Shown in pieces: positions 11,920 through 54,282 of a DNA stretch of 64,000 nucleotides. The translations under genes and the position numbers were made by a program. The first letter of the stretch is position 1, and each line of letters begins with the position of its first letter. Source of the stretch: an uncultured virus (IMG/VR IMGVR_UViG_2568526354_000007) (lineage: Duplodnaviria > Heunggongvirae > Uroviricota > Caudoviricetes); IMG/VR virus record IMGVR_UViG_2568526354_000007; one strand, written 5' to 3'. The notes beneath the pieces are model-generated. The model saw only the letters and a program-made list of their open reading frames with translations. It had not been told where the DNA came from and did no database searches.

Positions 11920-12264
11920 TTAGTTATTATAGTCAAAAGTGATAGATTTGCGCTGAAGACAACCTTTCACGCCACAAAGAAACGGTTTCATAGTATCCAT
12001 TACACGGGAGTTCTGTCGGATTGCTTTTTCCATTTCATTACATTTATGTAGGACCTCCTTGTATTTGTTATCCAGTTCATCAAAACGCTTCTTTAAATCC
12101 TGCCTGTCACTCTTCAAATCCTCGATCAGCTTCTGGTAAACCTCTTGGACTGACTTCATGGCATCCGCTTCCGCCTGTTTACGGGTATAGCGGAGAGTGA
12201 ATAACCAGGTCAAACCACCCGTACAAAAAGCGGTTACAACCGCCGTGATTATCGTTTCTGTCAT
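11920..12264 (-). CDS. Holin-like protein (N-terminal TM plus coiled coil)
   Basis: 114 aa from MTETII; AEADAMKSVQEVYQ shared with 60246-60590. Confidence 0.6.
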   Translation of the reverse strand: MTETIITAVVTAFCTGGLTWLFTLRYTRKQAEADAMKSVQEVYQKLIEDLKSDRQDLKKRFDELDNKYKEVLHKCNEMEKAIRQNSRVMDTMKPFLCGVKGCLQRKSITFDYNN

Positions 12265-12287
12265 ATTTCTGATTTTTATTGTCTCTA

Positions 12288-12323
12288 CAAAAGTGAGAAG
12301 AAAGAGACGAGAAGAAAAGGACA
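12288..12323 (-). promoter_or_regulatory. Putative late promoter, copy 2
   Basis: TGTCC-N23-CACTTTTG upstream of the holin-like gene, preceded by a terminator hairpin at 12331-12351. Confidence 0.7.
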
Positions 12324-12421
12324 TAAAAAAGTGCCGGGAACCACCCCGGCACAAACAACCCCTAACCTGGAACTTAAACTTAACGGATACCTTTTTCAAC
12401 AGGTATGCTAAATTATTCATA

Positions 12422-12668: not shown

Positions 12669-13043
12669 TTAAACGTTTTTAATCGGTGTAGTCTCTAAGG
12701 TAGTAAAATCAATAATTCCGGCCTGCCGGTATATTCCGAGGGCGACTTTTCTGAATCGTTCGTAATTACGTCTATCAATGGGCGACAACTGCCACCTCTT
12801 CATGTCTTTCATCAAATCCGGTATATTATTAGCACTATTATACAAACAGTTGTTTTTACCGTACTCGTGATGAAGTGATACGGACTGAAAATCACCGGAG
12901 AAAACAACTAACCGCAAACGTTCAAGTTCGAGGAAAGCAAATTCTTCGTTTACCTTCTCCACCTTATAGGCTCTTAATTCAATGGAAGGTGTACCGTATT
13001 CACGTCTAACGAAAAATAGAATATCAGGATTATTTGTATTCAT
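12669..13043 (-). CDS. Hypothetical phage protein
   Basis: 124 aa; start overlaps the upstream stop (ATGA). Confidence 0.65.
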   Translation of the reverse strand: MNTNNPDILFFVRREYGTPSIELRAYKVEKVNEEFAFLELERLRLVVFSGDFQSVSLHHEYGKNNCLYNSANNIPDLMKDMKRWQLSPIDRRNYERFRKVALGIYRQAGIIDFTTLETTPIKNV

Positions 13044-13396
13044 TTGGCACCTCCTTTTAAGTCTTCTAATTTAACATGTGAAATACTTGTTATATTTTCC
13101 AGTACCCCGTCGCATATACTTTTAACCCTTAATCCGCGGGAGCCGTCTTTCTTGGGTAAATTCAGGTGATAATACGGGCAATTCCTCCAAAATGTAATCT
13201 GAGAAATCCAGCCACGAACTTTAAAAGTAGCATTGCTTATTTTATAATCAATCTGTACCAGATCATCCGGTTTAAATCGACTTTCTTGTAAAAACATCCC
13301 TTGAATTTCTTCCTGCTCTTTCTTTATTTCCTCAATCCTTTTTTCATTGTTTTGTAATTGAGTAAGTAAGACCTGTTGATATTCAGTATATATCAT
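13040..13396 (-). CDS. Hypothetical phage protein
   Basis: 118 aa; GGAGG plus ATGA coupling. Confidence 0.65.
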   Translation of the reverse strand: MIYTEYQQVLLTQLQNNEKRIEEIKKEQEEIQGMFLQESRFKPDDLVQIDYKISNATFKVRGWISQITFWRNCPYYHLNLPKKDGSRGLRVKSICDGVLENITSISHVKLEDLKGGAK

Positions 13397-13743
13397 TTAG
13401 CACCTCCTTTCTTTTCTATCTGGGGACGCTCTGAAAACCTATATATTCCTTTAACCCGGTAAATGGAAAAATAGGCTACAGGCTTATCACAGCCGTTATT
13501 ATGTGTTTTAGTGTCCTGGTCTATGTGAATAAACCCGCTACCGGAAGATATTTTCAGCGGCATTGTTTTAGGGTATTTCTCGTTCAGCTCCTTTACCTTT
13601 GCTTCCAGTTCAGTTTTAAAAGCATCAAAGGAAATTTCATCAGGGCAAAGCGTATTACCAAACTGGTTTGCAAACTCTGTCATTTCAGCACATTTTCGAT
13701 TCTGTGGCTTATATTCGGTAAGCTTAATAAAATAAGATATCAT
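13393..13743 (-). CDS. Hypothetical phage protein
   Basis: Start MISYFIK is coupled to the upstream stop. Confidence 0.65.
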   Translation of the reverse strand: MISYFIKLTEYKPQNRKCAEMTEFANQFGNTLCPDEISFDAFKTELEAKVKELNEKYPKTMPLKISSGSGFIHIDQDTKTHNNGCDKPVAYFSIYRVKGIYRFSERPQIEKKGGAK

Positions 13744-13991
13744 TTTCGGCCTCCTTTCTGTAATTTCTTTGCCCGGTACACACAAATAGCCGCACCGATA
13801 ACAGCCGGTGGGAAGATAAAAGTAAGACAGAACCAGGCGATAGCAGATAAATAATAAGCATCAGAAGCCGAGTTTATGGAACACTCTTTTTCCAGCTCCT
13901 GAAAATAACGATGTTGGATTGTGTTTACGTCCGTGCTACCAGTACGGAACGAGGGCACGTAGCTTGTGCCGGATTGAAATTCTTTTTCCAT
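13740..13991 (-). CDS. Small TM protein, first gene behind the antisense switch (A)
   Basis: SDAYYLSAIAWFCLTFIFPP; homologue at 50631-50885 (SDAYYVSAIACLCATFIFPP). Confidence 0.7.
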   Translation of the reverse strand: MEKEFQSGTSYVPSFRTGSTDVNTIQHRYFQELEKECSINSASDAYYLSAIAWFCLTFIFPPAVIGAAICVYRAKKLQKGGRK

Positions 13992-14023
13992 AACGGTGTT
14001 AATTTTGACTATTTTACATGGGA

Positions 14024-14114
14024 AAGGCGGTTACCATTTCCCCTAATTCGTCAAAATTAACACCGCAAACCGTCCGAAGATCGGGTTATAAGTTTAGGGA
14101 AAGGCAACCGCCTT
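14024..14114 (-). ncRNA. Putative c4/CI-like antisense RNA (A)
   Basis: Closing stem 14024-14046/14094-14114 encloses 14050-14065, which is complementary to 13994-14009 (16/16) and 14196-14211 (15/16). Confidence 0.65.
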
Positions 14115-14354
14115 ATATAAACAACACTAAACGGGGTAGAAAAGAACCCCTTTATTTTTTCGAGCCAATAACCGAGACTCACCGGACCGCATCAGCGGTG
14201 TTAACTTTGACAGGGGCAAATGTCGGCATTAAATTCTGAACAAAAAAAAAAAAAACGTTAATTAAAGTTTATGTAAAAAGAAAGTTTGTAGACAAGGCGA
14301 TTCGTTACTTCGTAACAAAAACGCCCGCCAGAATTGGCGAGCGTTAATCTATTC

Positions 14355-31142: not shown

Positions 31143-31448
31143 ATGGCTAATTTCTTGTTAATAAGAGAGTTATGTGAATTAAAGAAAATCACTATACGAG
31201 AACTTGCTTCACGTATAGGAAAAGAAGATAGTAGCATACAGGCTATTGTTAGAAATGGATCAACGAATACAAAAACCATTGAAGCAATAGCAAAGGTTTT
31301 AGAGGTTCCTGTAGGTGTATTCTTTGATGATATTCCCATAAATGGAATAAAATCAAATGAACTTGATAAGGATGCAAAAATAGCTGATTTAGAAAGGATA
31401 ATTGAAGAGAAGGAACGTCTAATACAAGTCTTATTAAGTAAGAAATAA
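31143..31448 (+). CDS. CI-like XRE repressor
   Basis: ITIRELASRIGKEDSSIQ...TIEAIAKVLEVPVGVFF HTH plus a C-terminal coiled coil; no S24 domain seen. Confidence 0.8.
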   Translation: MANFLLIRELCELKKITIRELASRIGKEDSSIQAIVRNGSTNTKTIEAIAKVLEVPVGVFFDDIPINGIKSNELDKDAKIADLERIIEEKERLIQVLLSKK

Positions 31449-31464
31449 CCTGTAATAGATAAGA

Positions 31465-31720
31465 AATGTAGGCATATTGTAGGCTATATAATTATACAAA
31501 TAATTAATAATCAGGCGATTAAAGAACGTTACTTGAATCACAACGTAAAGGCAAGTAGTCTATAAAAAGACTGCTTGCCTTTCGTCATTTTACTGGTTAT
31601 CAAACACTTAGTACCACATCATTTCAGGTCAAAATCGTGCAAATTTCTTCAAAAAGGTAGAAAACAAATAGAAAACATACCCTAATTAAGGTATGGTAGA
31701 AAGAATTTAGAAAACAAAAA
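31465..31720. other. Putative att junction between prophages A and B
   Basis: ACGTT-N11-AACGT core (31526-31546) flanked by IHF-like AATCAGGCGATTA and TATCAAACACTTA sites and by different direct repeats on each side (TGTAGGC x2; TAGAAA x4). Confidence 0.5.
31547..31582. terminator. Hairpin terminator
   Basis: AAAGGCAAGTAGTC-N8-GACTGCTTGCCTTT. Confidence 0.7.
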
Positions 31721-32883
31721 TGATCATAAGAATAGTCCAAAATATACAGAGAATCAATAAAGAGGGTAATGCTCCTCTCTATATATCCTTTTATTTAGGA
31801 AAGGAAAAAGTTGTTATACCTTGTAAGTTATCTGTGCCTACAACTAAATTTGATTCTAAAACAGGAATGCTCAGAGGTACTAATAAGGAAGCAAAAGATA
31901 TTAATCTCATCATAGAACGGTTGAAAGCAAAAGTTAATGATATTCTCGTTAAGTATAGGCTCAAAAATCTCACACTGAATAAAGAAGCTTTTATAAGGGA
32001 ATATAACAACCCTTCAGATTTTAAATCCTTTCATGACTTTGTAGCATCTTATATGAAGACTTACAGTAGGAGATTAGAAATAGGAACATTTCGACATCAC
32101 AAAAGTTGTATGAGAAAGTTTAAAGAGTATTGTGAAGGCTTACAGTTTCATGAACTAACAGAAGATTTCCTCAGAGACTATCTAATTTATATGAAAAAAA
32201 CTCTATGCAACGCAGATTCAACGGCCCAACGTAATTTATCAACCATAAAAATATATGTATCTGCGGCTATAAAAAAGGGGTATATGGAAAATGATCCTTT
32301 TAAGGATTTTGGTGTAAAGAGAATAAAAGGTAATATTGACTATCTCACCGAAGAGGAATTGATAAAGTTCATTAGTTTATACTATGATAGAAGATTACCT
32401 GAACGTTTAGAACGAACATTAGGTTTCTTTTTATTTATGTGTTTCACCAGTTTGCATATTTCTGATGCTCGACACGTCTGTCTTGAACAAATTAATAATG
32501 GAATACTTACTTATTATCGGATTAAAAATAGAAATTGCAAACCGGAAGCAATAAAAATACCACTTTCAATTCCGGCATTCAAGATCATAGAGGAACTCCA
32601 AGGAAAAAGAAAAGAAGGACACCTCTTTACTTCATTGCAATGTGATCAGGTTGTTAATAGGCAAATTAAAGAGATCGCATCCATATTAGAGATAAAGAAA
32701 AAAGTGTCAGCCAAAACAGGTAGGCATACTTTCGCTACCATATTTCTAAAAAAAACAAAGGATGTAGCGACATTGCAAAAGTTATTAGGACATAGTAATT
32801 TGAAAGAAACAATGATCTATGCGCATGTACTTGATGAAAGCAAACAGGAAGGAATGCAATGCTTCAACTGCTTCGCTATTTAA
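31720..32883 (+). CDS. int: Tyrosine integrase
   Basis: Arm-binding N-terminus, SAM-like domain, GRHTFAT, LLGHS...TMIYAH. Box I reads TSLHISD rather than TGLRxSD. Confidence 0.92.
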   Translation: MIIRIVQNIQRINKEGNAPLYISFYLGKEKVVIPCKLSVPTTKFDSKTGMLRGTNKEAKDINLIIERLKAKVNDILVKYRLKNLTLNKEAFIREYNNPSDFKSFHDFVASYMKTYSRRLEIGTFRHHKSCMRKFKEYCEGLQFHELTEDFLRDYLIYMKKTLCNADSTAQRNLSTIKIYVSAAIKKGYMENDPFKDFGVKRIKGNIDYLTEEELIKFISLYYDRRLPERLERTLGFFLFMCFTSLHISDARHVCLEQINNGILTYYRIKNRNCKPEAIKIPLSIPAFKIIEELQGKRKEGHLFTSLQCDQVVNRQIKEIASILEIKKKVSAKTGRHTFATIFLKKTKDVATLQKLLGHSNLKETMIYAHVLDESKQEGMQCFNCFAI

Positions 32884-32930
32884 TTGTACTTTTGTGCGGT
32901 TAAGAGTTATCCTTCTGATAAATAAAAAGA

Positions 32931-32972
32931 TGCGGGCGCACAATATTTGTACAACTTAGTACAACGCCCGCA
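32931..32972. terminator. Hairpin between the convergent integrase and lysin genes
   Basis: TGCGGGCG...CGCCCGCA inverted repeat. Confidence 0.55.
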
Positions 32973-32978
32973 CTATTT

Positions 32979-33380
32979 TTACTTCATTAACAAATCCCAT
33001 CCGGCTTCAATATCTGCCATGACTGCGGGAACTCCGTTTTCTACTTGGCTGATGGCCGCGGCAAAGGCACACATTGTGGCTTTGTCGTCGATGTCTGGAA
33101 TATAAGTAGACGGTACCTGCATTTCACTGCATACACGGGTAATGTATCCTGATGTATTGTTTTCACAAGGTGGTGCATATCTGTTTATAAACTCAGCAAT
33201 AGTTTGTCGGTTATGTAGTTTCCGGTAGTTTTGCAGTAACTTGATCAAAGCACGATAGCCGTATGCCATCGAAATAAATTGCTTAAAACTTTTGTCTTGG
33301 CTGGGTACAATCTCACCTTGCCATTTATCCCGGTCATGTCTAATATTACCGGGATTGTTGTTTCGTAATCCTCTACTCAT
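32979..33380 (-). CDS. Lysozyme-like lysin/virion protein (NNPGNIR family)
   Basis: RGLRNNNPGNIR...GYRAL...INRYAPPCENNT motifs. Confidence 0.75.
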   Translation of the reverse strand: MSRGLRNNNPGNIRHDRDKWQGEIVPSQDKSFKQFISMAYGYRALIKLLQNYRKLHNRQTIAEFINRYAPPCENNTSGYITRVCSEMQVPSTYIPDIDDKATMCAFAAAISQVENGVPAVMADIEAGWDLLMK

Positions 33381-45288: not shown

Positions 45289-48200
45289 TTATTGTTTTTT
45301 ACGGGTGAATGGTTCCTTTGATTTATCTGCTAATTCTTGTGCTTCGTTGAGCTCGCGAAGCACGACGTATGCTTTGAGGTATTTAAGTTTCTCAATCAGT
45401 GCATGTAACTCTTTGATCAGTTGAGCCAAGTTTGCTTCCTTATCAGTCGGTGAAGAAGTTGTCTGAGAGATACGGGAAGTACTGTTACGGATCGGATCGT
45501 AATTGCCTTCAGCACGCTGGGAAACTCGGCCACTGCGAGCATCCTGAATGGCCTGTACGACAATGGGGTAATTAATGTGGTGCTGAAGACGGGAAAGATC
45601 TTCGGCATTGATGATTAATTCTGCTCCGGATTCGGATATCAATGAGGTACGGCGAACGATTCCGGTCGGTGAATCACCTATGTAGGGAACATCCCGATAG
45701 GTCCGGCCATCATCTTCACCAATGACATCGTATCTGCCGGATGCCCATTGCTTGACCTGTACCTGAGCAGTTTTGGTACTGTCGGTATTGTTATCGGTTG
45801 CGGAAGTGGAGGAACTCCCCCCTTTAATCAGTCCTTTGAGCGTTGATTTTGCAGCGGCCAATGCTCCCATGATCAGTCCGGAGAGAACTGCGGCACGGGC
45901 TGCACCGGTTGCTCCAAAGGTTGCAACAGAGTCGGGCATGGCATAGGCTTCGGCAGCGGAACGGGCTACAGCTCCGACAGCTACCCCCGTGGCCTTGGCT
46001 ATTTCAATATCAATCATCTGGCTTAGTACATCGAATAGTATATCGAGCATAGTATCAGCAAAGTTCTGCAGGGCATTTTCTTGACCTGATATCATTTGTC
46101 CGAGGGTATCGCCGATCTGTTCACCGTATTGCCGGTACTGTTGTGCCTGTTCAGTGAGCCTTTGTTTCTCCTTCCTGGCCAGTTCATCTTTTTTCTTTTG
46201 AGCGGCATCTTCAAGTTTCTTCCGCTCTTTTTCTTCATCTTGAAGACATTTTACTTTAAAGTCGAGTAGTTGTTGTTCAATGGTGCGCCGTTGATCAGCG
46301 TCGAGATTAGCAATTTTGAGAACACGTTCCAGGTGCATGATGGTTAGGTGCTCCATTGCTTCATTGTACTCTTTCTCTGTTTTCAGATTTTCATCCTTAC
46401 CGGAAACATAGAGAAGTTTTAAGTCCTTTTGTTGGTTTTCATAAAGTGTCTTTTCTTCAGCGAGCTGTCGGTTCATCTGCTCTTTTTGCTGTTTAATTTT
46501 GATATCGTTGATTCGATTTTGAGCATCAATACCTTCTTTACTTTTTGCACCGGCTATATTAATGACACGTTGCAGATGTTCTAATTCGAGGGTTTCCATC
46601 CGGTCATTAAACTGCTGCTCGGTTTGCAAGGTTTCGTCCTGGCGTTTGAGATAGGCTTCTTTAAGTTCCGACTGGTGTTGAGAGTAGAGCTTGGCTTCTT
46701 CTTCAAGCTTCTTTTTAAGAAGGGCTTTGGCTTTCTCTTCATCAATTATGGGAGTTGTTATTTTGTTATTTGTAGTTTCTTCATTCGCTTTGTTGACCTC
46801 CTCTATGGCTAAAGCTGATTCACCTATCTCTTTGGTTATTTCATCTATTTTCTCAGAAATTGAGGATAAATTTTTTCGCGTTTCATTAAGAGTTTCTAAT
46901 GCTTTTCCTTCTTTTTCTGTACCAAAAAGTCTGGAAATTTTAGCTGTAAGGCTATTCCGATTATATCCTTGTAAGGTATTGGTTTGGCGAATCTTCCAAT
47001 ATTGATCACTTTGGGTTTCTTCATCTTTTTCCAGTGTACGTTTCTGGGCATAAAGATTTTCAAGTTCTTGCTGTGCTGCTTTTAACTTGATTTGCTTTTC
47101 AAGTTGTACCAGATAATTTTTGATTGCGTCTGTATTGTTTTTCGTTAATGTTCCTTCATCGGTTAGTTGGGCATTGTAGTCTGGAATGATTTCTTTTAGA
47201 TCATTTAAAGCCTTTCGACGAACATCAAGCGCAATTCCATTATCATTGATGACAGCAGTCAAAGCACGTATCTTCGATTCTTGTTGAATAAATGATTTAT
47301 TGGTCTCTTCATTTACTTTTTTTATTCCTGATACAGAATCTTTCAATTCATCGTTTTTCTTTTTTAAGTTTATGAGGTAGGCTATAGCTGTGGCCGCGAC
47401 TACGGCTATTATACCATAGGGGTTTGTCATCAGCTCTTTCTTAATGGCTTTTAAAGACTTTGCAATATTATTATTCCAAAATGTAACGACTTTACTGATT
47501 ATTACATCAGAGTTCTTAGCAGCTGTGTAAGCTATAAGGGCAATGGTCAATAACGTAATTGCCCTTTTGTTTTCATTGATGAAGTTTAATAGTTTAATGA
47601 GTTTTCCAGTCCAACTGACAGCACCATTTGCTGCTGATATGAGGGCAGGATTGAGCTTTTCTAATAATTCAATACCAAGTTCCTGCATGCGGTTTTTGGC
47701 TTGCGATAGTTTAGCTGCCGCTGTTTCTGATTTTGTGGCGGCCTGCTCCATGGCTACGGACGTACCGGTGACTGCCTCAGTGTAGTATTTTACCTTATCG
47801 GCTTCATTGATAAGTACGGAGGCCACATTGTATCCTTCTTCTCCAAATTGCTTCTTAATCTGGGCTGCTGAGAGTTGCTTTTTCTGAAGGTTATCCAAAG
47901 CTTTCTCTAAACCAACGATTTTGGGATTTGTATCGTCTGCTCCGGTTTGTAGGGTAAGGAAGAATTTCTTTAAACCGGTACCGGCTATTTCGTCTTTGAT
48001 ACCTTTTTCGGCCAATGTTTCAATAGTACCCACGAGCTGTTCGATAGGAATTTCGGCAGAGGCAGCAGCTACTCCGGATTTGGTAACGGCTGTGGTGACG
48101 GACTCTACGGCTGCCGCTCCATATTTAGAGCCGGCGGCCATGACGTTTGCATAGCGTGAAGCTTGGTCGGCACCATCACCGTATTGATTAAGAGAAAGGG

Positions 48201-49017
48201 TTACGGCATCGACTGCATCCTTCAGGGTCATACCTGATGCAGAAGCTAATATAAGGGTCTGTTTTGTCACCTCGGCCAAAGCTTCTTTGTTGTCAAGAAG
48301 TTCGGGCTTGGCAGAGCCTACCAATTTGTAGGCATCAAGAATTTCCGTTGCGGACTGTCTAATGCGAATGCCGGATTCGGTCATTGTCGTTGACAACTGG
48401 ACAGCTTGCTGTTCCAACCAGTTTATATCGTCCTTGGAAAGTCCGGTAAGAGCTTCAACATCGGCCTTGGCTTCCTCGCGTTTGTTTCGCTGTTCTCGGA
48501 GTTGGTTGAGTTTCATTGAAACTCCGGTGATAGCTGCTATGACAGTACCGATCAGACCAATATATTTGTTAATGAATCCGGAGGCACGTGACCAGATATT
48601 ACCTTGTGCACCTACCTCGACGCGCATGTTGGCCTGTGCTCTGGAAAGGGCTTCAGTGACACGCCGATTCTGCTCAAGAGCAGCAGTATATTGTTTCGTT
48701 CCGGGCACTGCATTACGAAGCTCTTTCCGGACGCGGGACTGGACAGCAAGGAGTTCGTTGTAAGTTGCTCCGGAGAGGCTTTTGAGAACCCGTTCTGTTT
48801 CGGCTAACTGTTTCTCGTAATTCTGAAGAGTTCGGTTTTTTGCATCCAGTTCTTTTTTGAGATCCTGGGAGCGTTTTGCATAATCTACTTCTTTTTCGGT
48901 AAGTGACCTGAGTTTATCTTCAAGATGAGAAATACTTTCTTTTACCAGGTCTATTTTATTAGTGGCTTCTGAGCCATCAATATAAAGTTTAATACTGCGG
49001 TTTAGGTCGTTTGCCAT
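45289..49017 (-). CDS. Phage tail tape measure protein (B)
   Basis: 1242 aa, helical; TP901-type core (ILDAYKLVGSAKPELL...NVMAAGSKYGAA). Confidence 0.9.
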   Translation of the reverse strand: MANDLNRSIKLYIDGSEATNKIDLVKESISHLEDKLRSLTEKEVDYAKRSQDLKKELDAKNRTLQNYEKQLAETERVLKSLSGATYNELLAVQSRVRKELRNAVPGTKQYTAALEQNRRVTEALSRAQANMRVEVGAQGNIWSRASGFINKYIGLIGTVIAAITGVSMKLNQLREQRNKREEAKADVEALTGLSKDDINWLEQQAVQLSTTMTESGIRIRQSATEILDAYKLVGSAKPELLDNKEALAEVTKQTLILASASGMTLKDAVDAVTLSLNQYGDGADQASRYANVMAAGSKYGAAAVESVTTAVTKSGVAAASAEIPIEQLVGTIETLAEKGIKDEIAGTGLKKFFLTLQTGADDTNPKIVGLEKALDNLQKKQLSAAQIKKQFGEEGYNVASVLINEADKVKYYTEAVTGTSVAMEQAATKSETAAAKLSQAKNRMQELGIELLEKLNPALISAANGAVSWTGKLIKLLNFINENKRAITLLTIALIAYTAAKNSDVIISKVVTFWNNNIAKSLKAIKKELMTNPYGIIAVVAATAIAYLINLKKKNDELKDSVSGIKKVNEETNKSFIQQESKIRALTAVINDNGIALDVRRKALNDLKEIIPDYNAQLTDEGTLTKNNTDAIKNYLVQLEKQIKLKAAQQELENLYAQKRTLEKDEETQSDQYWKIRQTNTLQGYNRNSLTAKISRLFGTEKEGKALETLNETRKNLSSISEKIDEITKEIGESALAIEEVNKANEETTNNKITTPIIDEEKAKALLKKKLEEEAKLYSQHQSELKEAYLKRQDETLQTEQQFNDRMETLELEHLQRVINIAGAKSKEGIDAQNRINDIKIKQQKEQMNRQLAEEKTLYENQQKDLKLLYVSGKDENLKTEKEYNEAMEHLTIMHLERVLKIANLDADQRRTIEQQLLDFKVKCLQDEEKERKKLEDAAQKKKDELARKEKQRLTEQAQQYRQYGEQIGDTLGQMISGQENALQNFADTMLDILFDVLSQMIDIEIAKATGVAVGAVARSAAEAYAMPDSVATFGATGAARAAVLSGLIMGALAAAKSTLKGLIKGGSSSTSATDNNTDSTKTAQVQVKQWASGRYDVIGEDDGRTYRDVPYIGDSPTGIVRRTSLISESGAELIINAEDLSRLQHHINYPIVVQAIQDARSGRVSQRAEGNYDPIRNSTSRISQTTSSPTDKEANLAQLIKELHALIEKLKYLKAYVVLRELNEAQELADKSKEPFTRKKQ

Positions 49018-49641: not shown

Positions 49642-50127
49642 TTAATCCTCCCAGTATGTTTGGTCAATGAAATAGGTTTCAGGTTGAGCCAAAGAGAATG
49701 TCAGTACTACACCATAGAAATTATCACCAATCGGACCAATACCATTAAATTGAATGGTATCGTCAATGAATTCTGAAATGTCGGGGTCTTGCAGGATACA
49801 GTTCCGAATTTGTTTTGCGACAGCTTTGCATTCTTTTGCTGCCTGGTTGATTGTTTCCGGACGATCAGAAACAGTGTTCTGTGCCACAATGAAAGAGAAC
49901 ATGTCATTGTTATTAAGCGCATCGGATTCGTTTCGTTTTGATTCAGATTCACAACCATCAACTGCAATCAGGATCATGCCGGATACGGATGATAGTTTAT
50001 CATTAAAATTATATAAGTCCTCAAGTCCGAAAGCGGTGAAGAATCTGGGCTTTTCGGGTGTGTGGGCAATAGGCTTTAAGCGAATGGCAAGTGTTTTGCC
50101 ATATTCAAAGTGGTTGTATATCTCCAT
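49642..50127 (-). CDS. Putative tail terminator (B)
   Basis: 161 aa, ends FYGVVLTFS; counterpart of 6433-6876. Confidence 0.55.
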   Translation of the reverse strand: MEIYNHFEYGKTLAIRLKPIAHTPEKPRFFTAFGLEDLYNFNDKLSSVSGMILIAVDGCESESKRNESDALNNNDMFSFIVAQNTVSDRPETINQAAKECKAVAKQIRNCILQDPDISEFIDDTIQFNGIGPIGDNFYGVVLTFSLAQPETYFIDQTYWED

Positions 50128-50672
50128 AAAAGTCAGGGGTTAGGTTATGGAGACAAAAATAGCCCGCGGAAAGCGGGCTATAAAGGACAGGTCAGGAGAA
50201 CCAGAGCGTTAAGAGGATGATACCGGCGATAATGGATATACTTTTACCAGTTGCATTCCTACTTCTTCTTACAATAGCGGTCTCGACAGTGACAAAACCT
50301 ATAATAATACAAAAGTCTATCATAGTTCTTCTCTTATTCAGGTAATAAAATCCGAATTAACTCACGAAGCTGCATTGCTGCACGTTCTTTTTCTATCGGT
50401 GATGTGCCTTCGGATAATAGGATATCAACGAGGGTTAATGCTTTCTTCTTATTCATGGCATTCTCCTTTCTTTTCTTTCTCAATTTGGTTAATAAGATTA
50501 CGTATAGCGATTAATCTGTCATAGGAGATTTCGCAGAGCTGCTCACCATCGGCAAAAACGTTATAATAGATATTTGGTGTATTCTTTCCTTCATGAAGAA
50601 CAGTGCACTTTTCGATCCAGGCTTCTTCTTTTATTCGTCCCATTTCGTACCTCCTTTCTTAGTTTTGATAAC
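50113..50672. repeat. ~560-bp direct repeat, copy 1 (contains promoter copy 6 at 50154-50189 and three small ORFs)
   Basis: Near-identical, with scattered substitutions, to 51231-51790. Confidence 0.92.
50449..50643 (-). CDS. Small hypothetical protein
   Basis: 64 aa, GGAGG-coupled; degenerate second copy at ~51568-51760. Confidence 0.55.
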   Translation of the reverse strand: MGRIKEEAWIEKCTVLHEGKNTPNIYYNVFADGEQLCEISYDRLIAIRNLINQIEKEKKGECHE

Positions 50673-50885
50673 ACAATAAATGGCTGCAAGAATGCATGGA
50701 GGAAAGATGAACGTAGCACAAAGGCAAGCAATGGCACTGACATAGTAAGCGTCAGAGGAGGTTTTAACTTTGCAATCGGATGGGATAAAATCATCAATTG
50801 CGGAGTTGGACTGATGAGGGACTGTGGTGGGTTCCGGTGTGCGGAACTGAGGCACAAAAAGGGTGCCGGTGGATTTTTTTTTCAT
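50631..50885 (-). CDS. Small TM protein, first gene behind the antisense switch (B)
   Basis: Homologous to 13740-13991. Confidence 0.7.
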   Translation of the reverse strand: MKKKSTGTLFVPQFRTPEPTTVPHQSNSAIDDFIPSDCKVKTSSDAYYVSAIACLCATFIFPPCILAAIYCVIKTKKGGTKWDE

Positions 50886-50941
50886 ACTTACTGATTGTTT
50901 CGCATTTTAGTTGAGAACCGCTCAACCATCGGGACGCAGAA

Positions 50942-51018
50942 ACGGCTGCCATCTCCCGTGTCGCGAAACAATCAGTAAGATTACTCCAAGAGCAAAATTA
51001 CAAGGGAAAGGCAGCCGT
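50942..51018 (-). ncRNA. Putative c4/CI-like antisense RNA (B)
   Basis: Stem 50942-50957/51004-51018 encloses 50963-50979 (complementary to 50887-50903 and 51121-51134) and 50986-50993 (complementary to 51102-51109). Confidence 0.65.
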
Positions 51019-51230
51019 ATTGGTTGCTTTTAATAAAAGCTTCTACATATATCTAATGGACATAAAAAAAGCCCATCTTTATTCGTTGAGCGTCTTGCAT
51101 CGCTCTTGGTGATAAACATCACTGATTATTTCGCACTGCAAATATGGATATAATATTTGAGAGTGCAAAGAGAAAATTGTATTTTTATCATAAAATGTAG
51201 CAACATGAATAATATGGATACAGTCGGTGA

Positions 51231-51790
51231 GTTGTATATCTCCATGAAAGTCAGGGGTTAGGTTATGGAGACAAAAATAGCCCGCGGAAAGCGGGCTATA
51301 AAGGACAGGTCAGGAGAACCAAAGCGTTAAGAGGATGATAGCGGAGATAATGGATATACTTTTACCAGTTGCATTCCTACTTCTTCTTACAATAGTGGTC
51401 TCGACAGTGACAAAACCTATAATAATACAAAAGTCTATCATAGTTCTTCTCTTATTCGGGTAATAAAATCCGAATTAACTCACGAAGCTGCATTGCTGCA
51501 CGTTCTTTTTCTATCGGTGATGTGCCTTCGGATAATAGGACATCGACGAGGGCTAATGCTTCCTCCTTATTCATGGCATTCTCCTTTCTTTTCTTTCTCA
51601 ATTTGGTTAATAAGATTACGTATAGCGATTAATCTGTCATAGGAGATTTTGCAGAGCTGCTTAACATCGGCAAAAACGTTATAATAGATATTGGGTGTGG
51701 CCTTTCCTTCATGAAGTACAGTACACTTTTCGACCCAAGCTTCTTCTTTTATTCATTCCATTTCCTACCTCCTTTCTTAGCTTTGATAAC
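51231..51790. repeat. ~560-bp direct repeat, copy 2 (contains promoter copy 7 at 51272-51307)
   Basis: Matches 50113-50672; keeps only the first 5 codons (MEIYN) of the tail gene. Confidence 0.92.
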
Positions 51791-52036
51791 GAATAATCTA
51801 CCTATATTGAATGGATCATCACGGCTTTTTTGTAATTTTGCAGTTGGATTGAGATAACTCGTTCCTAGACATATTGCTCGATAGCTTCACAATCACCACC
51901 ACAAATAAAGAGCAACAACTAATATTGGGACTTCCCCGAATATGGGCGCAGACTTCCCATATTTAGTTGTGGTTTGTGGTAAACCGTGAAGCGTATGGCA
52001 AATGTCTGCGCTTTTTATTATAAAAAAATAATAGAT

Positions 52037-52471
52037 ATGACTAAAATTACTAACACTCATGTTTTAGACAAGGCAAAATTGTCTGTATTGCTGTTAATTA
52101 TAATGTTTACGAATTCTTTGGCTTTTGCTCAAAGTGAACCAGAGACAGCAAAGCCTTTGACCGATATGGAAGTTGTACGTAAAGTAGCATTTCTTGATAT
52201 TGAAGGAAAATATTATGAAGATGTTACGATGTCTTTCAAGTCAATAACTCCTGACTATTTTATATCAGATAAATATAAAGTCAAAGTAAAAGTCGTTGAT
52301 AAAAATGGAAAATCTATATATAAAAAGACTTTGAAAAATGTTTTTCTATATGTGTTTTCAAATGGTCAAATACAAGTGGGGAAAAAGAATTTTGACCAAA
52401 TAGTCGTGTCAAAATCAAAAGAGACAGATGAAAATATAGGTATAATTAGGGAAAAAGAAGGAGTTTATTAG
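52037..52471 (+). CDS. Secreted hypothetical protein (moron)
   Basis: Signal-like LSVLLLIIMFTNSLAFA; AT-rich. Confidence 0.65.
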   Translation: MTKITNTHVLDKAKLSVLLLIIMFTNSLAFAQSEPETAKPLTDMEVVRKVAFLDIEGKYYEDVTMSFKSITPDYFISDKYKVKVKVVDKNGKSIYKKTLKNVFLYVFSNGQIQVGKKNFDQIVVSKSKETDENIGIIREKEGVY

Positions 52472-52484
52472 TCGTTTTTATAAA

Positions 52485-53549
52485 ATGAAATATTTACATA
52501 CTTATCAGCATTTTGCTCTTAATACCGATAATTGCATCGTTGATATAAAGAATGTAGATTATTCAAATGAACAATATTTTTGCCCTTATTGTCACAATGA
52601 GATGATAGCTAAACGTGGAAATATCCGCCAATGGCATTTTGCGCATAAGGCTGACAAATGTTCTTATGACAAATATCTACATTCCATTGCTGAGATAATG
52701 ATAATGAATTGGTTTAATCAGAAAGAGCATATCATGTTATCTATGGATAATTATGAAAAGTGCGTCAAGTATGATAATTGTGTTTTCCATGACGAGAAAA
52801 ACTGTAAGAGGGCAAAGAGAGTGCAATTTGATTTAAAGACTTATTATTCAAGATGCATCCAAGAACATAGGTGTAAAGACTTTATAGCCGATTTGTATTG
52901 TGAAAACAAGACTAATCCTAATTTGCCTATTTTTATTGAAGTATTTGTAACACATGAATGCAGTCAAGAAAAGAAAAAATCAGGCATTCGTATTATTGAA
53001 CTTAGTATTCAGTCAGAAGAAGATATTCTGGATATTGTAAATTCTACAAATTTAAATGAATGTGAAAAGGTTAAGTTGTACAACTTTAAACGTAATGAAA
53101 TTTTATCAGAAAACTTTACACGACCTTTCCAAAAATATATCTTACATCATACTTTGAAAAGCTATGTTGAACGAGATACGTTTACCTGTAGGAATTACAA
53201 CCACCACAGAAAAGGAATCTATGAAATAAGTATGCCATATGATGATTGCATACCATATTTTTTCAATAGTGGTGGTTTATATACGATTGGAAAAGTTAAA
53301 GCGTATCTTGATGGGTATTTAAAAAAAGATTGCCAATTATGTAAATGGCAAGCAGAAGATATGAGTGGAAGTAAGTTCTGCAAATTGTATAAAAAATGTG
53401 GTAATCCAAAATATTGCAATGATAATGATGTTTCAAAATGTTCAATGTTTAGAGAGAATACACAAATGATAAATGATGCTATCTCTGATTTTAATGAATA
53501 TCAAAAAAATGATTCTGTGAATATTTGGAATATAGATACCTCATATTAA
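52485..53549 (+). CDS. CoiA-like PD-(D/E)XK nuclease-domain protein, Cys-rich
   Basis: CPYC...WHFAHK zinc-binding N-terminus, ADL...IFIEVFVTH nuclease-like motif, C-terminal CxxC cluster. Confidence 0.7.
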   Translation: MKYLHTYQHFALNTDNCIVDIKNVDYSNEQYFCPYCHNEMIAKRGNIRQWHFAHKADKCSYDKYLHSIAEIMIMNWFNQKEHIMLSMDNYEKCVKYDNCVFHDEKNCKRAKRVQFDLKTYYSRCIQEHRCKDFIADLYCENKTNPNLPIFIEVFVTHECSQEKKKSGIRIIELSIQSEEDILDIVNSTNLNECEKVKLYNFKRNEILSENFTRPFQKYILHHTLKSYVERDTFTCRNYNHHRKGIYEISMPYDDCIPYFFNSGGLYTIGKVKAYLDGYLKKDCQLCKWQAEDMSGSKFCKLYKKCGNPKYCNDNDVSKCSMFRENTQMINDAISDFNEYQKNDSVNIWNIDTSY

Positions 53550-53930
53550 TCAAGAGGCAATTACCATCCCATTCCAAAAAACACACTTGATGTTTTTCGT
53601 TTTTGGAAAAACATATTATATTTACAGTTGAAAGAGTTATTTGACAGCATAGCACCGCAAAACGCTGAAAATCGCACGGTTGCCAATTCGTTACTATTAT
53701 TTCTCAAATACTCCGCTAAATATTTATTCCTCAAAGGGTTGTGTCAAACCGTTGAAAATCTAAAATATAAAAGAGAAATCTATGGAATAGATACCATGTT
53801 TATGGTATTTTTAAGGTGAATCTTCAAAAAAAGGAATGAAATATGTTCTTATTTTACAGTAAAAAAGTAGTTTTGTGAGACAATGATAGTAACAAGATGA
53901 AGTTAGTTAAGCTCTAAAAAGGAATTTGAT

Positions 53931-54113
53931 ATGACGAAAGATAGAAAAATATTAATTCTCAAAATATGCTTAATACCAATTGTCTACTTTGTAATTAGGG
54001 AGTTGTTCAAATTAGGTATTGTGCAGAAATACGATGATTTCTTTTTGTTATTGTGTGTAGCTTTGCCGTTCATTTACGACATATGGGCTAAACGGAAAAA
54101 ATATTTTAAATAA
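53931..54113 (+). CDS. Small two-TM protein
   Basis: 60 aa, hydrophobic; hairpin terminator at 54125-54153. Confidence 0.5.
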   Translation: MTKDRKILILKICLIPIVYFVIRELFKLGIVQKYDDFFLLLCVALPFIYDIWAKRKKYFK

Positions 54114-54282
54114 TATGTAAGAGAGTAGGGGTATCAATGCTGATACCCCTACTTGTTTATTAAAAGCCGGCTACTTCATAATACTTGAAAAAGTAGTATA
54201 GACAGTTTTTTTCAATCTGCTTTTGAAATTACAGTATAAGTTAAACTTTCTTTAGCATAATGGCTGGTTTTATTATTGCATC

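Follow-up and report, generated by a model that had tools for sequence, protein, structure and literature searches.

Antisense RNAs that lie on the same transcript as the genes they control offer the closest described parallels to the element analysed here. The c4 RNA lies in the icd-ant leader, is processed to ∼77 nucleotides (nt) and pairs through its loops near the ribosome-binding site, with a 4-nt difference separating the P1 and P7 types (PMC5320573, PMC8201110), while the CI RNA of P4 base-pairs with two sites, seqA upstream and seqC downstream, and brings about termination (PMC4825925). A table in PMC2864571 lists c4 and c4-a1b1 for Proteobacteria and their phages. Phages of Proteobacteria are known to use antisense-RNA immunity of the c4/CI type, and a comparable system in Bacteroides phages is unreported in the portions of the literature covered by our searches. 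Here we describe a candidate leader RNA in the uncultured Caudoviricetes virus record IMGVR_UViG_2568526354_000007 of IMG/VR, the whole stretch of which (64,000 nt) is referred to as the window. The leader heads a small operon, cassette B, and carries three sites built around one variable seed: an upstream copy a1, its complement a' and a second copy a2 at the start of the first open reading frame (ORF1). The names follow the nomenclature of the c4 system, where the immI region is ordered a1 b1, c4 (with a' and b'), a2 b2, icd and ant, RNase P carries out the processing and an antirepressor is governed by way of translation of the small icd ORF. We consider this three-site module to be probably, at a chance of roughly 58%, a Bacteroides-phage counterpart of the P1 c4 and P4 CI antisense modules with a phage-specific address.

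All elements of cassette B read 5' to 3' on the minus (sense) strand of the window, and every coordinate assigned to them by a first-pass annotation made from the letters alone was correct on that strand. The core elements are as follows, in window coordinates.

51139..51169, minus strand: promoter-like region kept in relatives, with TTTG at 51169..51166, a 19-nt spacer and the box CATATTTG at 51146..51139
51118..51134, minus strand: a1, the 5'-proximal seed copy GCGAAATAATCAGTGAT, complementary to a' with G.U wobbles
50943..51017, minus strand: scaffold, with stem P1 (CGGCTGCC/GGCAGCCG, 51017..51010 paired with 50950..50943) and stem P2 (TCCC/GGGA, 51007..51004 paired with 50957..50954)
50963..50979, minus strand: a', the complement of the seed, CTTACTGATTGTTTCGC, located in the 3' part of the scaffold loop
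50935..50942, minus strand: U-rich tract TTTCTGCG after P1, a possible intrinsic termination point of a short RNA
50887..50903, minus strand: a2, the seed copy GCGAAACAATCAGTAAG, covering -20..-2 of the start codon and ending one base before the ATG (50885..50883)
50631..50885, minus strand: ORF1, predicted to encode an 84-amino-acid (aa) small membrane protein with an SDAYYVSAIA...FPP motif and a hydrophobic C-terminal half

The a' and a2 arms are 17 nt long, 100% complementary and 59 nt apart in a repeat search, which reproduced the 17/17 complementarity given in the first-pass annotation. The core of a1 (GCGAAATAATCAGT, 51134..51121) can be extended to 51118, four bases separate it from the promoter box, and over the full site a1 matches a2 at 14 of 17 positions. 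When up to three mismatches were allowed, the seed had three copies in the window (a2, a' and a1), compared with 0.17 expected, and none of 100 shuffles reached three. The stem initially drawn as ACGGCTGCCTTTCCC (51018..51004) pairing with GGGAGATGGCAGCCGT (50957..50942) corresponds to P1 and P2, which enclose a small hairpin P3 (50984-50992) and the single-stranded a'.

The window holds a second cassette of the same layout.

13740..14224, minus strand: cassette A, with the same promoter box, a1, hairpins, scaffold (14020-14113), a' and a2, followed by a homologous 83-aa ORF1 (13740-13991)

Its seed, GTCAAAATTAACACCG, is unrelated to that of cassette B, and the predicted cross duplexes between the A and B seeds reach only -9 and -6 kcal/mol compared with -26 and -28 kcal/mol for the cognate ones. 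The scaffold word CGGYTGCCTTTCCC has two mismatch-free copies in the window, at 51004-51017 in B and 14097-14110 in A, and a scaffold covariance model built from relatives matches only these two places in the 64 kb. The proposal that A and B share one scaffold and differ in seed was thus confirmed by the scaffold word, the covariance model and the seed comparison alike. The predicted folds of both leaders are clearly more stable than those of shuffled sequences (B, z = -4.9; A, z = -4.0).

Relatives were collected in two samples. The protein-anchored sample comprised the best 80 of 132 stretches with an ORF1 relative, obtained from 213 candidates. The scaffold-anchored sample, which was blind to ORF1, comprised 80 loci among the matches listed for a degenerate scaffold pattern, four of which were GC-rich chance matches. 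Together they form a pooled set of 157 cassettes, some contigs being present in both. At 79 of 80 loci of the protein-anchored sample, the start region forms an exact inverted repeat, 8 nt or longer, with a site 67–101 nt upstream; the 80th has no upstream DNA. In all, 25 different seed words were counted, both window copies included. The third copy, a1, was found 219–303 nt upstream in 29 of 37 distinct leaders (38 leaders, one without upstream DNA), as opposed to at most 1 in 200 shuffled seeds; in the remaining eight the exact word was short or the register was broken by an indel or wobble. Duplex energies calculated with RNAduplex for 25 leaders averaged -27.2 kcal/mol for cognate and -11.2 ± 3.9 kcal/mol for non-cognate a':a2 pairs, the cognate partner being the best in 24 of 25 rows, and the corresponding values for a':a1 were -29.8 and -13.8 ± 4.9 kcal/mol with the cognate best in 22 of 25 rows. 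The a':a2 complement was also present in all 76 non-chance loci listed in the scaffold-anchored sample, where an exact complement of 12 nt or more was seen for 66 of 80 cognate pairs compared with 10 of 920 non-cognate pairs. Among the matches listed, the 157 pooled cassettes contained 61 distinct 22-mers before the ATG, falling into 47–57 single-linkage groups.

The first-pass annotation had inferred natural covariation of the sites from the two window cassettes and suggested collecting homologues through the ORF1 protein, comparing their leaders and tabulating their seeds. Both samples bear the covariation out for a1, a' and a2, the complementarity being kept across the 25 words, and the same analysis fails to bear it out for b1 (CCAAGAGC, 51109..51102), which had been listed as a further element of the shared layout. 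In cassette B, b1 is complementary at 8 of 8 positions to GCTCTTGG in the scaffold. Across the 25 leaders, the cognate energy of this pairing was -15.9 kcal/mol versus -12.4 ± 4.0 kcal/mol for non-cognate combinations, and the cognate partner was the best in only 5 of 25 rows. We therefore rejected b1/b' as a second specificity site for its small cognate preference, and b1 is read as belonging to a conserved hairpin.

Within an otherwise near-identical leader the seed is hypervariable, in agreement with the diversifying specificity code that had been postulated. Between cassette B and one relative (L001), 99 of 102 positions are identical outside a' and a2 and 24 of 34 inside, and the ORF1 proteins are identical. 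The differences are coordinated at the two separated patches a' and a2, and the 59 nt between them and the flanks stay the same. In a contig from one RNA run, too, the ORF1 region is unchanged but a2 is different and a segment of the scaffold has been exchanged.

Mismatches between a1 and a' are of the G.U type in 34 cases and of the A.C type in 7 on the sense strand under symmetric scoring, although the leader sequences are related and a binomial figure for this asymmetry is indicative only. As the mismatches are mostly G.U on the sense strand, the pairing is at the RNA level. The scaffold itself is conserved as a structure, as had been claimed: its 12 pairs are formed in 99.9% of alignment cells on 59 distinct sequences (36–71% in slid controls), 5 of the 12 are compensatory (reached by 1 of 500 shuffles) and RNAalifold on 25 sequences finds 4 of 12 compensatory, figures that lean towards structure because the model guided the alignment and the pattern used for retrieval already set part of P1.

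These data bear on the possibility that the repeats work in DNA, with a1, a' and a2 as operators of a DNA-binding protein or with a' and a2 bounding a small invertible segment. Such a view would suit the arrangement of a1 and a2 as direct repeats and a' as an inverted one, flanking a promoter-proximal region, and invertible promoters are common in Bacteroides. However, the G.U over A.C asymmetry would be meaningless in duplex DNA, recombinase or operator sites should be conserved whereas these are hypervariable, the a'-a2 segment has the same orientation in 79 of 79 protein-anchored loci with upstream DNA, and one of the two strands of a covarying RNA helix lies between the repeats. A weaker point is that no strand-change joint was seen among the contigs of four RNA runs. 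Taken together, we regard a DNA-level function as very improbable.

The three pairings a1:a', P1/P2 and a':a2 cross in sequence order and hence compete with each other unless a pseudoknot forms. In minimum free energy (MFE) folds of the full leader, a':a2 is present in 16 of 25 sequences and a1:a' in 7 of 25, the two lying a few kcal/mol apart. When the nascent RNA up to P1 was folded with nested pairs only, P1 was in the MFE structure of 6 of 25 sequences with a1 free and of 25 of 25 with a1 held single-stranded. P1 is GC-rich, and at least five T occur in the first 8 nt after it in 61 of the 76 listed scaffolds. These folds suggest that P1 with the U-tract could be a terminator, a1:a' the corresponding antiterminator and a':a2 a mask of the start site.

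Combining these elements, the leader would work through mutually exclusive pairings around one variable address, namely a1:a', or P1/P2 with the U-tract presenting a', or a':a2. Transcription would start a few bases before a1. A free a1 would capture a' as soon as it is made, so that the terminator-like scaffold would not form, the polymerase would read through, a2 would stay open and ORF1 would be translated, carrying the downstream ORFs with it through the overlapping stop and start codons and a Shine-Dalgarno (SD)-like word. If a resident cognate scaffold RNA with a free a' were present, it would bind a1 and a2 of new transcripts, favouring termination at P1 and blocking initiation at ORF1, where the a':a2 pairing would bury positions -20 to -1. 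A transcript with its a1 occupied would either terminate, yielding more scaffold RNA, or be masked at a2, and the variable 10–14 nt of the address would let each cassette answer only to its own RNA. The sequences show the three sites, their covariation and RNA-level pairing, the scaffold, the U-tract, the layout of the junctions and the diversity of seeds; from these we infer the transcription start, termination at P1, a free short RNA, its action in trans and the coupling. The same logic is described for P4 CI with seqA and seqC (PMC4825925) and for c4 of P1 and P7 (PMC5320573, PMC8201110). Initiation in Bacteroidia is described as depending on mRNA structure and upstream bases and not on SD sequences (PMC6847099), which makes masking of -20..-1 a credible block.

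The same three sites might instead form a translational switch or timer acting in cis only, in which a1:a' forms first and permits a brief burst of ORF1 synthesis before a':a2 silences it, or in which 5' decay removing a1 closes the start, the seed having no addressing role. All three sites lie within ∼250 nt of one transcript, intramolecular pairing over 59 nt should beat any partner in trans, and the two states are nearly iso-energetic (a':a2 in 16 and a1:a' in 7 of the 25 MFE folds, and a1:a' in 17 of 25 prefixes ending at P1). Yet a helix serving in cis would be under no diversifying pressure, and 10 of 34 a'/a2 positions differ between cassette B and L001 on otherwise matching flanks and an identical ORF1; 47–57 seed groups on one scaffold are as expected of specificity determinants avoiding cross-talk, and a conserved GC-rich P1 with a U-tract would have no obvious role. 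We consider the cis-only account rather unlikely and favour an address read in trans, because a' and a2 diverge in concert on the same flanks, about fifty addresses occur on one scaffold and co-resident seeds are orthogonal. The number of addresses and the orthogonality of co-resident seeds are what would be expected of determinants that avoid cross-talk, an argument drawn from the sequences and not a test. The suggestion of the first-pass annotation that the code lets related phages coexist is likewise conjectural. As a tentative and rather doubtful extension of the trans reading, the module could be a protein-free, self-reinforcing immunity or addressing system in which the resident scaffold RNA captures a1 and a2 of incoming transcripts with the same address and converts them by termination into more of itself, so that about fifty orthogonal addresses would decide which phages or cassettes are co-expressed in one cell.

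The genes behind the leader are as follows.

50192..50643, minus strand: coupled cargo, consisting of a 64-aa ORF (50449-50643), a 40-aa ORF (ATG at 50456, running to 50334) and a 43-aa hydrophobic ORF (50192-50323)
50641-50660, 50454-50475, 13743-13770, 13396-13420 and 13043-13065, minus strand: SD-like junctions, predicted from the sequence

ORF1 ends with the SD-like word AAAGGAGG (50657..50650) and its stop codon overlaps the ATG of the second ORF (50643..50641); its C-terminus K(K)GG is encoded as AAGAAAGGAGG, 5–8 nt before the ATG that overlaps the ORF1 stop. Since ORF1 has both the overlapping stop and the SD-like end, control of ORF1 should extend to the whole small operon, and by this architecture ORF1 resembles a leader ORF. 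In 68 of 71 cassettes, the final 24 nt of ORF1 contain an SD-like word. In the window it precedes 8 of 71 ORF starts (background 5%), five of which are internal junctions of cassettes A and B. Words of the AAAGGAGG type stand 5–8 nt before overlapping starts at every ORF-ORF junction within the two cassettes.

ORF1 and the cargo ORFs have no family in Pfam, PHROGs, PADLOC or NCBIfam, the ESM Atlas returned only unnamed clusters of hypothetical or transmembrane proteins of Bacteroidota and viruses, and a homologous-protein search returned 12 unnamed relatives. The first ORFs of the 71 cassettes comprise 59 of a linked small-membrane-protein group, 2 of another hydrophobic protein and 10 of a soluble 61–65-aa protein, and 61 of 71 belong to blastp groups whose example has a 19-residue window with a Kyte-Doolittle mean of at least 2.0. 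In total, the RNA module precedes at least five blastp groups of first ORFs and is portable, ORF1 varying among membrane, other hydrophobic and soluble proteins. The soluble first ORFs stand behind the same promoter-a1-scaffold-a2 module in L097, L110, L112, L116, L117, L126, L151 and similar loci (e.g. MKKQNQSAHGRYVSAEK...NEKGGKA).

The small size of ORF1, its strongly hydrophobic segment (61 of 71 cassettes), a start masked by a complementary RNA segment and an autonomous promoter-to-terminator unit in prophage late regions, resembling a moron, could also point to a type I toxin–antitoxin-like or abortive-infection module, in which a membrane-damaging ORF1 is held in check by the leader RNA until the RNA pool collapses. 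In its favour, too, paralogous type I systems are known to diverge to avoid cross-talk. Several features do not suit this explanation, which we judge quite unlikely. In 10 of 71 cassettes the ORF1 on the same RNA module is soluble and 61–65 aa long; ORF1 always ends in a junction feeding downstream ORFs, which suits a leader ORF better than a stand-alone toxin; and the membrane proteins of the largest ORF1 group (78–121 aa) exceed the typical length of type I toxins. The RNA is moreover co-directional and on the same transcript, with no separate antisense or divergent gene and no opposite-strand element at the cassette that could be an antitoxin gene of its own, and the proteins matched neither PADLOC nor any other of the family libraries (Pfam, PHROGs and NCBIfam).

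The remaining elements of the cassette are listed below.

51277..51299, minus strand: upstream intrinsic terminator, a hairpin (9-bp stem, 6 GC) with a T-tail, TTTTTG, which closes a truncated upstream cassette copy
51109..51122, minus strand: hp1, hairpin GTGAT/ATCAC of the MFE fold, whose 5' arm overlaps the 3' end of a1
51088..51105, minus strand: hp2, conserved hairpin GAGCG/CGCTC with 4 pairs, one of them compensatory, which includes b1
51056..51076, minus strand: hp3, conserved hairpin ATGGGC/GTCCAT with a U7AU loop and 5 pairs, GGGC/GCCC being nearly invariant
50910..50926, minus strand: hp4, hairpin GTTGAG/CTCAAC of the MFE fold between the scaffold and a2, variable in relatives and absent from A-type leaders
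50159..50181, minus strand: terminator ending cassette B, an identical copy of 51277-51299 just before a 161-aa gene (49642-50127)

Positions T5-G8 of the promoter box are invariant in 25 of 25 leaders, and the box lies 4–5 nt 5' of a1. The consensus of Bacteroides promoters is TTTG-N19-21-TAnnTTTG, and the box CATATTTG is best read, on this resemblance, as the -7 element of a promoter of that type. In four leaders (L031, L035, L040 and L054) the -33 region, ∼30 nt before a1, was seen by eye to read TTTGGCAC, the exact complement of the a1 start GTGCCAAA; this inverted repeat across the promoter may be due to chance because a' resembles the -33 word. Other leaders also have a hairpin in the place of hp1, with different sequences. 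The hp3 segment GGGC-UUUUUUUAU-GCCC is the best-conserved piece of the 5' leader domain in the protein-anchored leaders (L001-L080), lies outside the address and is no clear terminator. We rejected hp3 as a terminator; it was flagged as such in cassette A only, and inspection by eye found the T-tail absent after hp3 in most leaders. An AU-rich spacer separates hp3 from the scaffold. The terminator at 51277..51299 is predicted to shield cassette B from upstream transcription. With its own promoter and terminators, the leader is best read as a self-contained RNA regulatory module heading a small prophage operon, to judge from this arrangement of elements.

Several observations weigh against the antisense-module reading. 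At the gathering threshold no Rfam family, C4 (RF01695) included, matched anywhere in the window, and at E ≤ 10 the two leaders gave 13 and 11 sub-threshold matches, among which neither C4 nor any related phage RNA appeared. The cassettes also lack a match to the strict Bacteroides promoter pattern, the first base of the B box being C. The cassette B U-tract is weak (4 T of 8). In 17 of 25 prefixes ending at P1, a' is paired to its own a1, and for this reason a terminated RNA may be self-masked and could not act in trans without processing or a pseudoknot-tolerant fold; the modelled exclusivity of a1:a' and P1 also stems in part from allowing nested pairs only. The cargo proteins show no likeness to an antirepressor (Ant) or to any family in Pfam, PHROGs, PADLOC or NCBIfam. 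On one viral contig there are two cassettes whose seeds differ, GCTAAAACAATGATTCGTA in L009 and GCTAAAAACCTA in L020, from which it follows that the seed would be the address of a cassette and not one phage-wide immunity type. Finally, Bacteroidia ribosomes are reported not to recognise SD sequences (PMC10798248, PMC6847099), and in such SD-blind ribosomes the role of the SD-like junctions in coupling is uncertain. Their presence within cassettes is a separate puzzle in an SD-blind host.

The window consists of two prophage-like regions in tandem.

∼1 to 32.9 kb: region A, with a tape-measure gene, an endolysin, a protease, an Ant-like gene, a repressor-like gene and an integrase (31720-32880)
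∼33 kb to the window end: region B, with a lysin, tail fibre genes and a tape-measure gene (45289-49017)

The two regions abut at 31143-33380, where the integrase of A (31720-32880, plus strand) and the repressor-like gene adjoin a lysin gene (32982-33380, minus strand) at the apparent end of B. Cassette B is a self-contained unit running from terminator, promoter box and leader through ORF1 and the 64-, 40- and 43-aa ORFs to a terminator, and it directly precedes 161-aa and 206-aa genes that stand before the tape-measure gene. In diverged relatives the cassette occupies the same slot before a 156–161-aa gene; the genes that follow it are a different set in region A and in A-type relatives. 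The cassettes thus do sit at different genomic slots, and the idea of a mobile module agrees with its occurrence in two slots and before at least five blastp groups of first ORFs. A search with the 161-aa gene gave 22 close relatives, 96–100% identical, on the contigs of L001-L022, and this search, in which the regions upstream were not inspected, revealed no cassette-free site.

A tandem repeat with a period of 1118 nt and 95–98% identity links 50113-50650 and 51231-51790. The upstream copy (51218-51790) is a second, older and truncated cassette: the last ∼25 nt of its ORF1 are left, together with the terminator, the cargo ORFs of 64, 40 and 43 aa and the opening codons of the 161-aa gene. 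A plus-strand island (∼51800-54200) that has a TAATTTTG promoter box of its own is inserted into this older copy and cuts it off. Of the two proteins encoded by the island, one (161 aa) is hydrophobic over an N-terminal stretch and the other (354 aa) has a CoiA_N domain (E = 3.7e-13) as well as a weak DruB-like match. The island may be a defence moron. Downstream of cassette A, a 166-aa protein (11923-12420, minus strand) has weak matches to a hol-like PHROG (1.1e-6), a PADLOC 2TM effector (6.5e-5) and NCBIfam SLATT_4 (2.8e-4, below cut-off).

The scaffold model matches 10 of 61 genomes around the nearest genome, 9 of 37 in the genus and 1 of 24 in other genera of the order. Protein-anchored loci in species genomes belong to Bacteroides or Bacteroidaceae, plus one contig of a metagenome-assembled genome labelled Lachnospiraceae. 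The viral collection contains more than 108 stretches with the scaffold pattern, and the phage isolate collection contains one unannotated metagenomic record covering 19% of the query. A second viral contig with two ORF1 copies at different places was also seen (L027 and L030, the latter without upstream DNA). Literature searches on c4 antisense RNA, on type I toxin–antitoxin systems and small RNAs, and on prophage antisense or superinfection small RNAs in Bacteroides returned no description of this element in the portions of text available. If the antisense-module reading is true, this would be the first gene switch acting at the RNA level in temperate phages of a dominant gut genus and would show a way of controlling translation in a phylum with SD-blind ribosomes, and the approximately fifty natural, mutually orthogonal address variants on one scaffold would provide material for studying the evolution of RNA specificity and for building Bacteroides regulators. 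If the self-reinforcing immunity reading were also true, the addresses would amount to an RNA incompatibility code for the gut virome and a set of ready orthogonal riboregulators for the SD-blind phylum.

In systems of the hok/sok type, the start of a small hydrophobic protein is masked by RNA pairing and alternative long-range pairings are made with the 5' end. The present module resembles them in having, in most cassettes, a small hydrophobic protein with a start predicted to be masked by RNA, but it has no separate antisense gene, its ORF1 is soluble in 10 of 71 cassettes and ORF1 feeds downstream ORFs. A second parallel is IsrK/STnc1160-orf45-anrP-antQ of the Gifsy-1 prophage, where a single promoter gives short and read-through isoforms (PMC4825925), as the present module is proposed to do. 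According to the same source, the short IsrK RNA refolds the long one and alters translation of a small first ORF, which drives the downstream genes (PMC4825925). The short IsrK RNA activates in trans, a trans effect of the present module could have either sign, and the phylum differs.

With P4 CI (seqA-cI/seqB-seqC), the module shares the order of target, antisense and target on one transcript (a1-a'-a2). Antisense pairing by P4 CI is linked to premature termination (PMC4825925), and here a GC-rich stem and U-tract follow a' and form in silico when a1 is occupied. There is no similarity to P4 CI in sequence or by model; termination is predicted here, and the downstream target overlaps the start codon, which would add a translational block.

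No Rfam model matches. The RNA is not a member of the c4 or CI families, and it differs from c4 in using one long site (17–22 nt) instead of two short loops, in having a cargo that no library identifies as an antirepressor, in standing in late-region, moron-like cassettes and in being able to occur twice per phage. Its host phylum is Bacteroidota, whereas c4 is listed for Proteobacteria and their phages (PMC2864571). The likenesses to c4 of P1 and P7 (RF01695) are as follows. The antisense element is encoded in the leader of its own operon on the same strand, with a' 59 nt upstream of a2 and a single promoter box, and a structured scaffold presents a single-stranded complement. One target lies at the start of a small first ORF and a second copy upstream, and a2 and a1 covary with the complement while the b sites are not specificity sites. 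As reported for c4 (PMC5320573, PMC8201110), a few changed bases would give a new specificity, and in both systems a small ORF precedes further genes.

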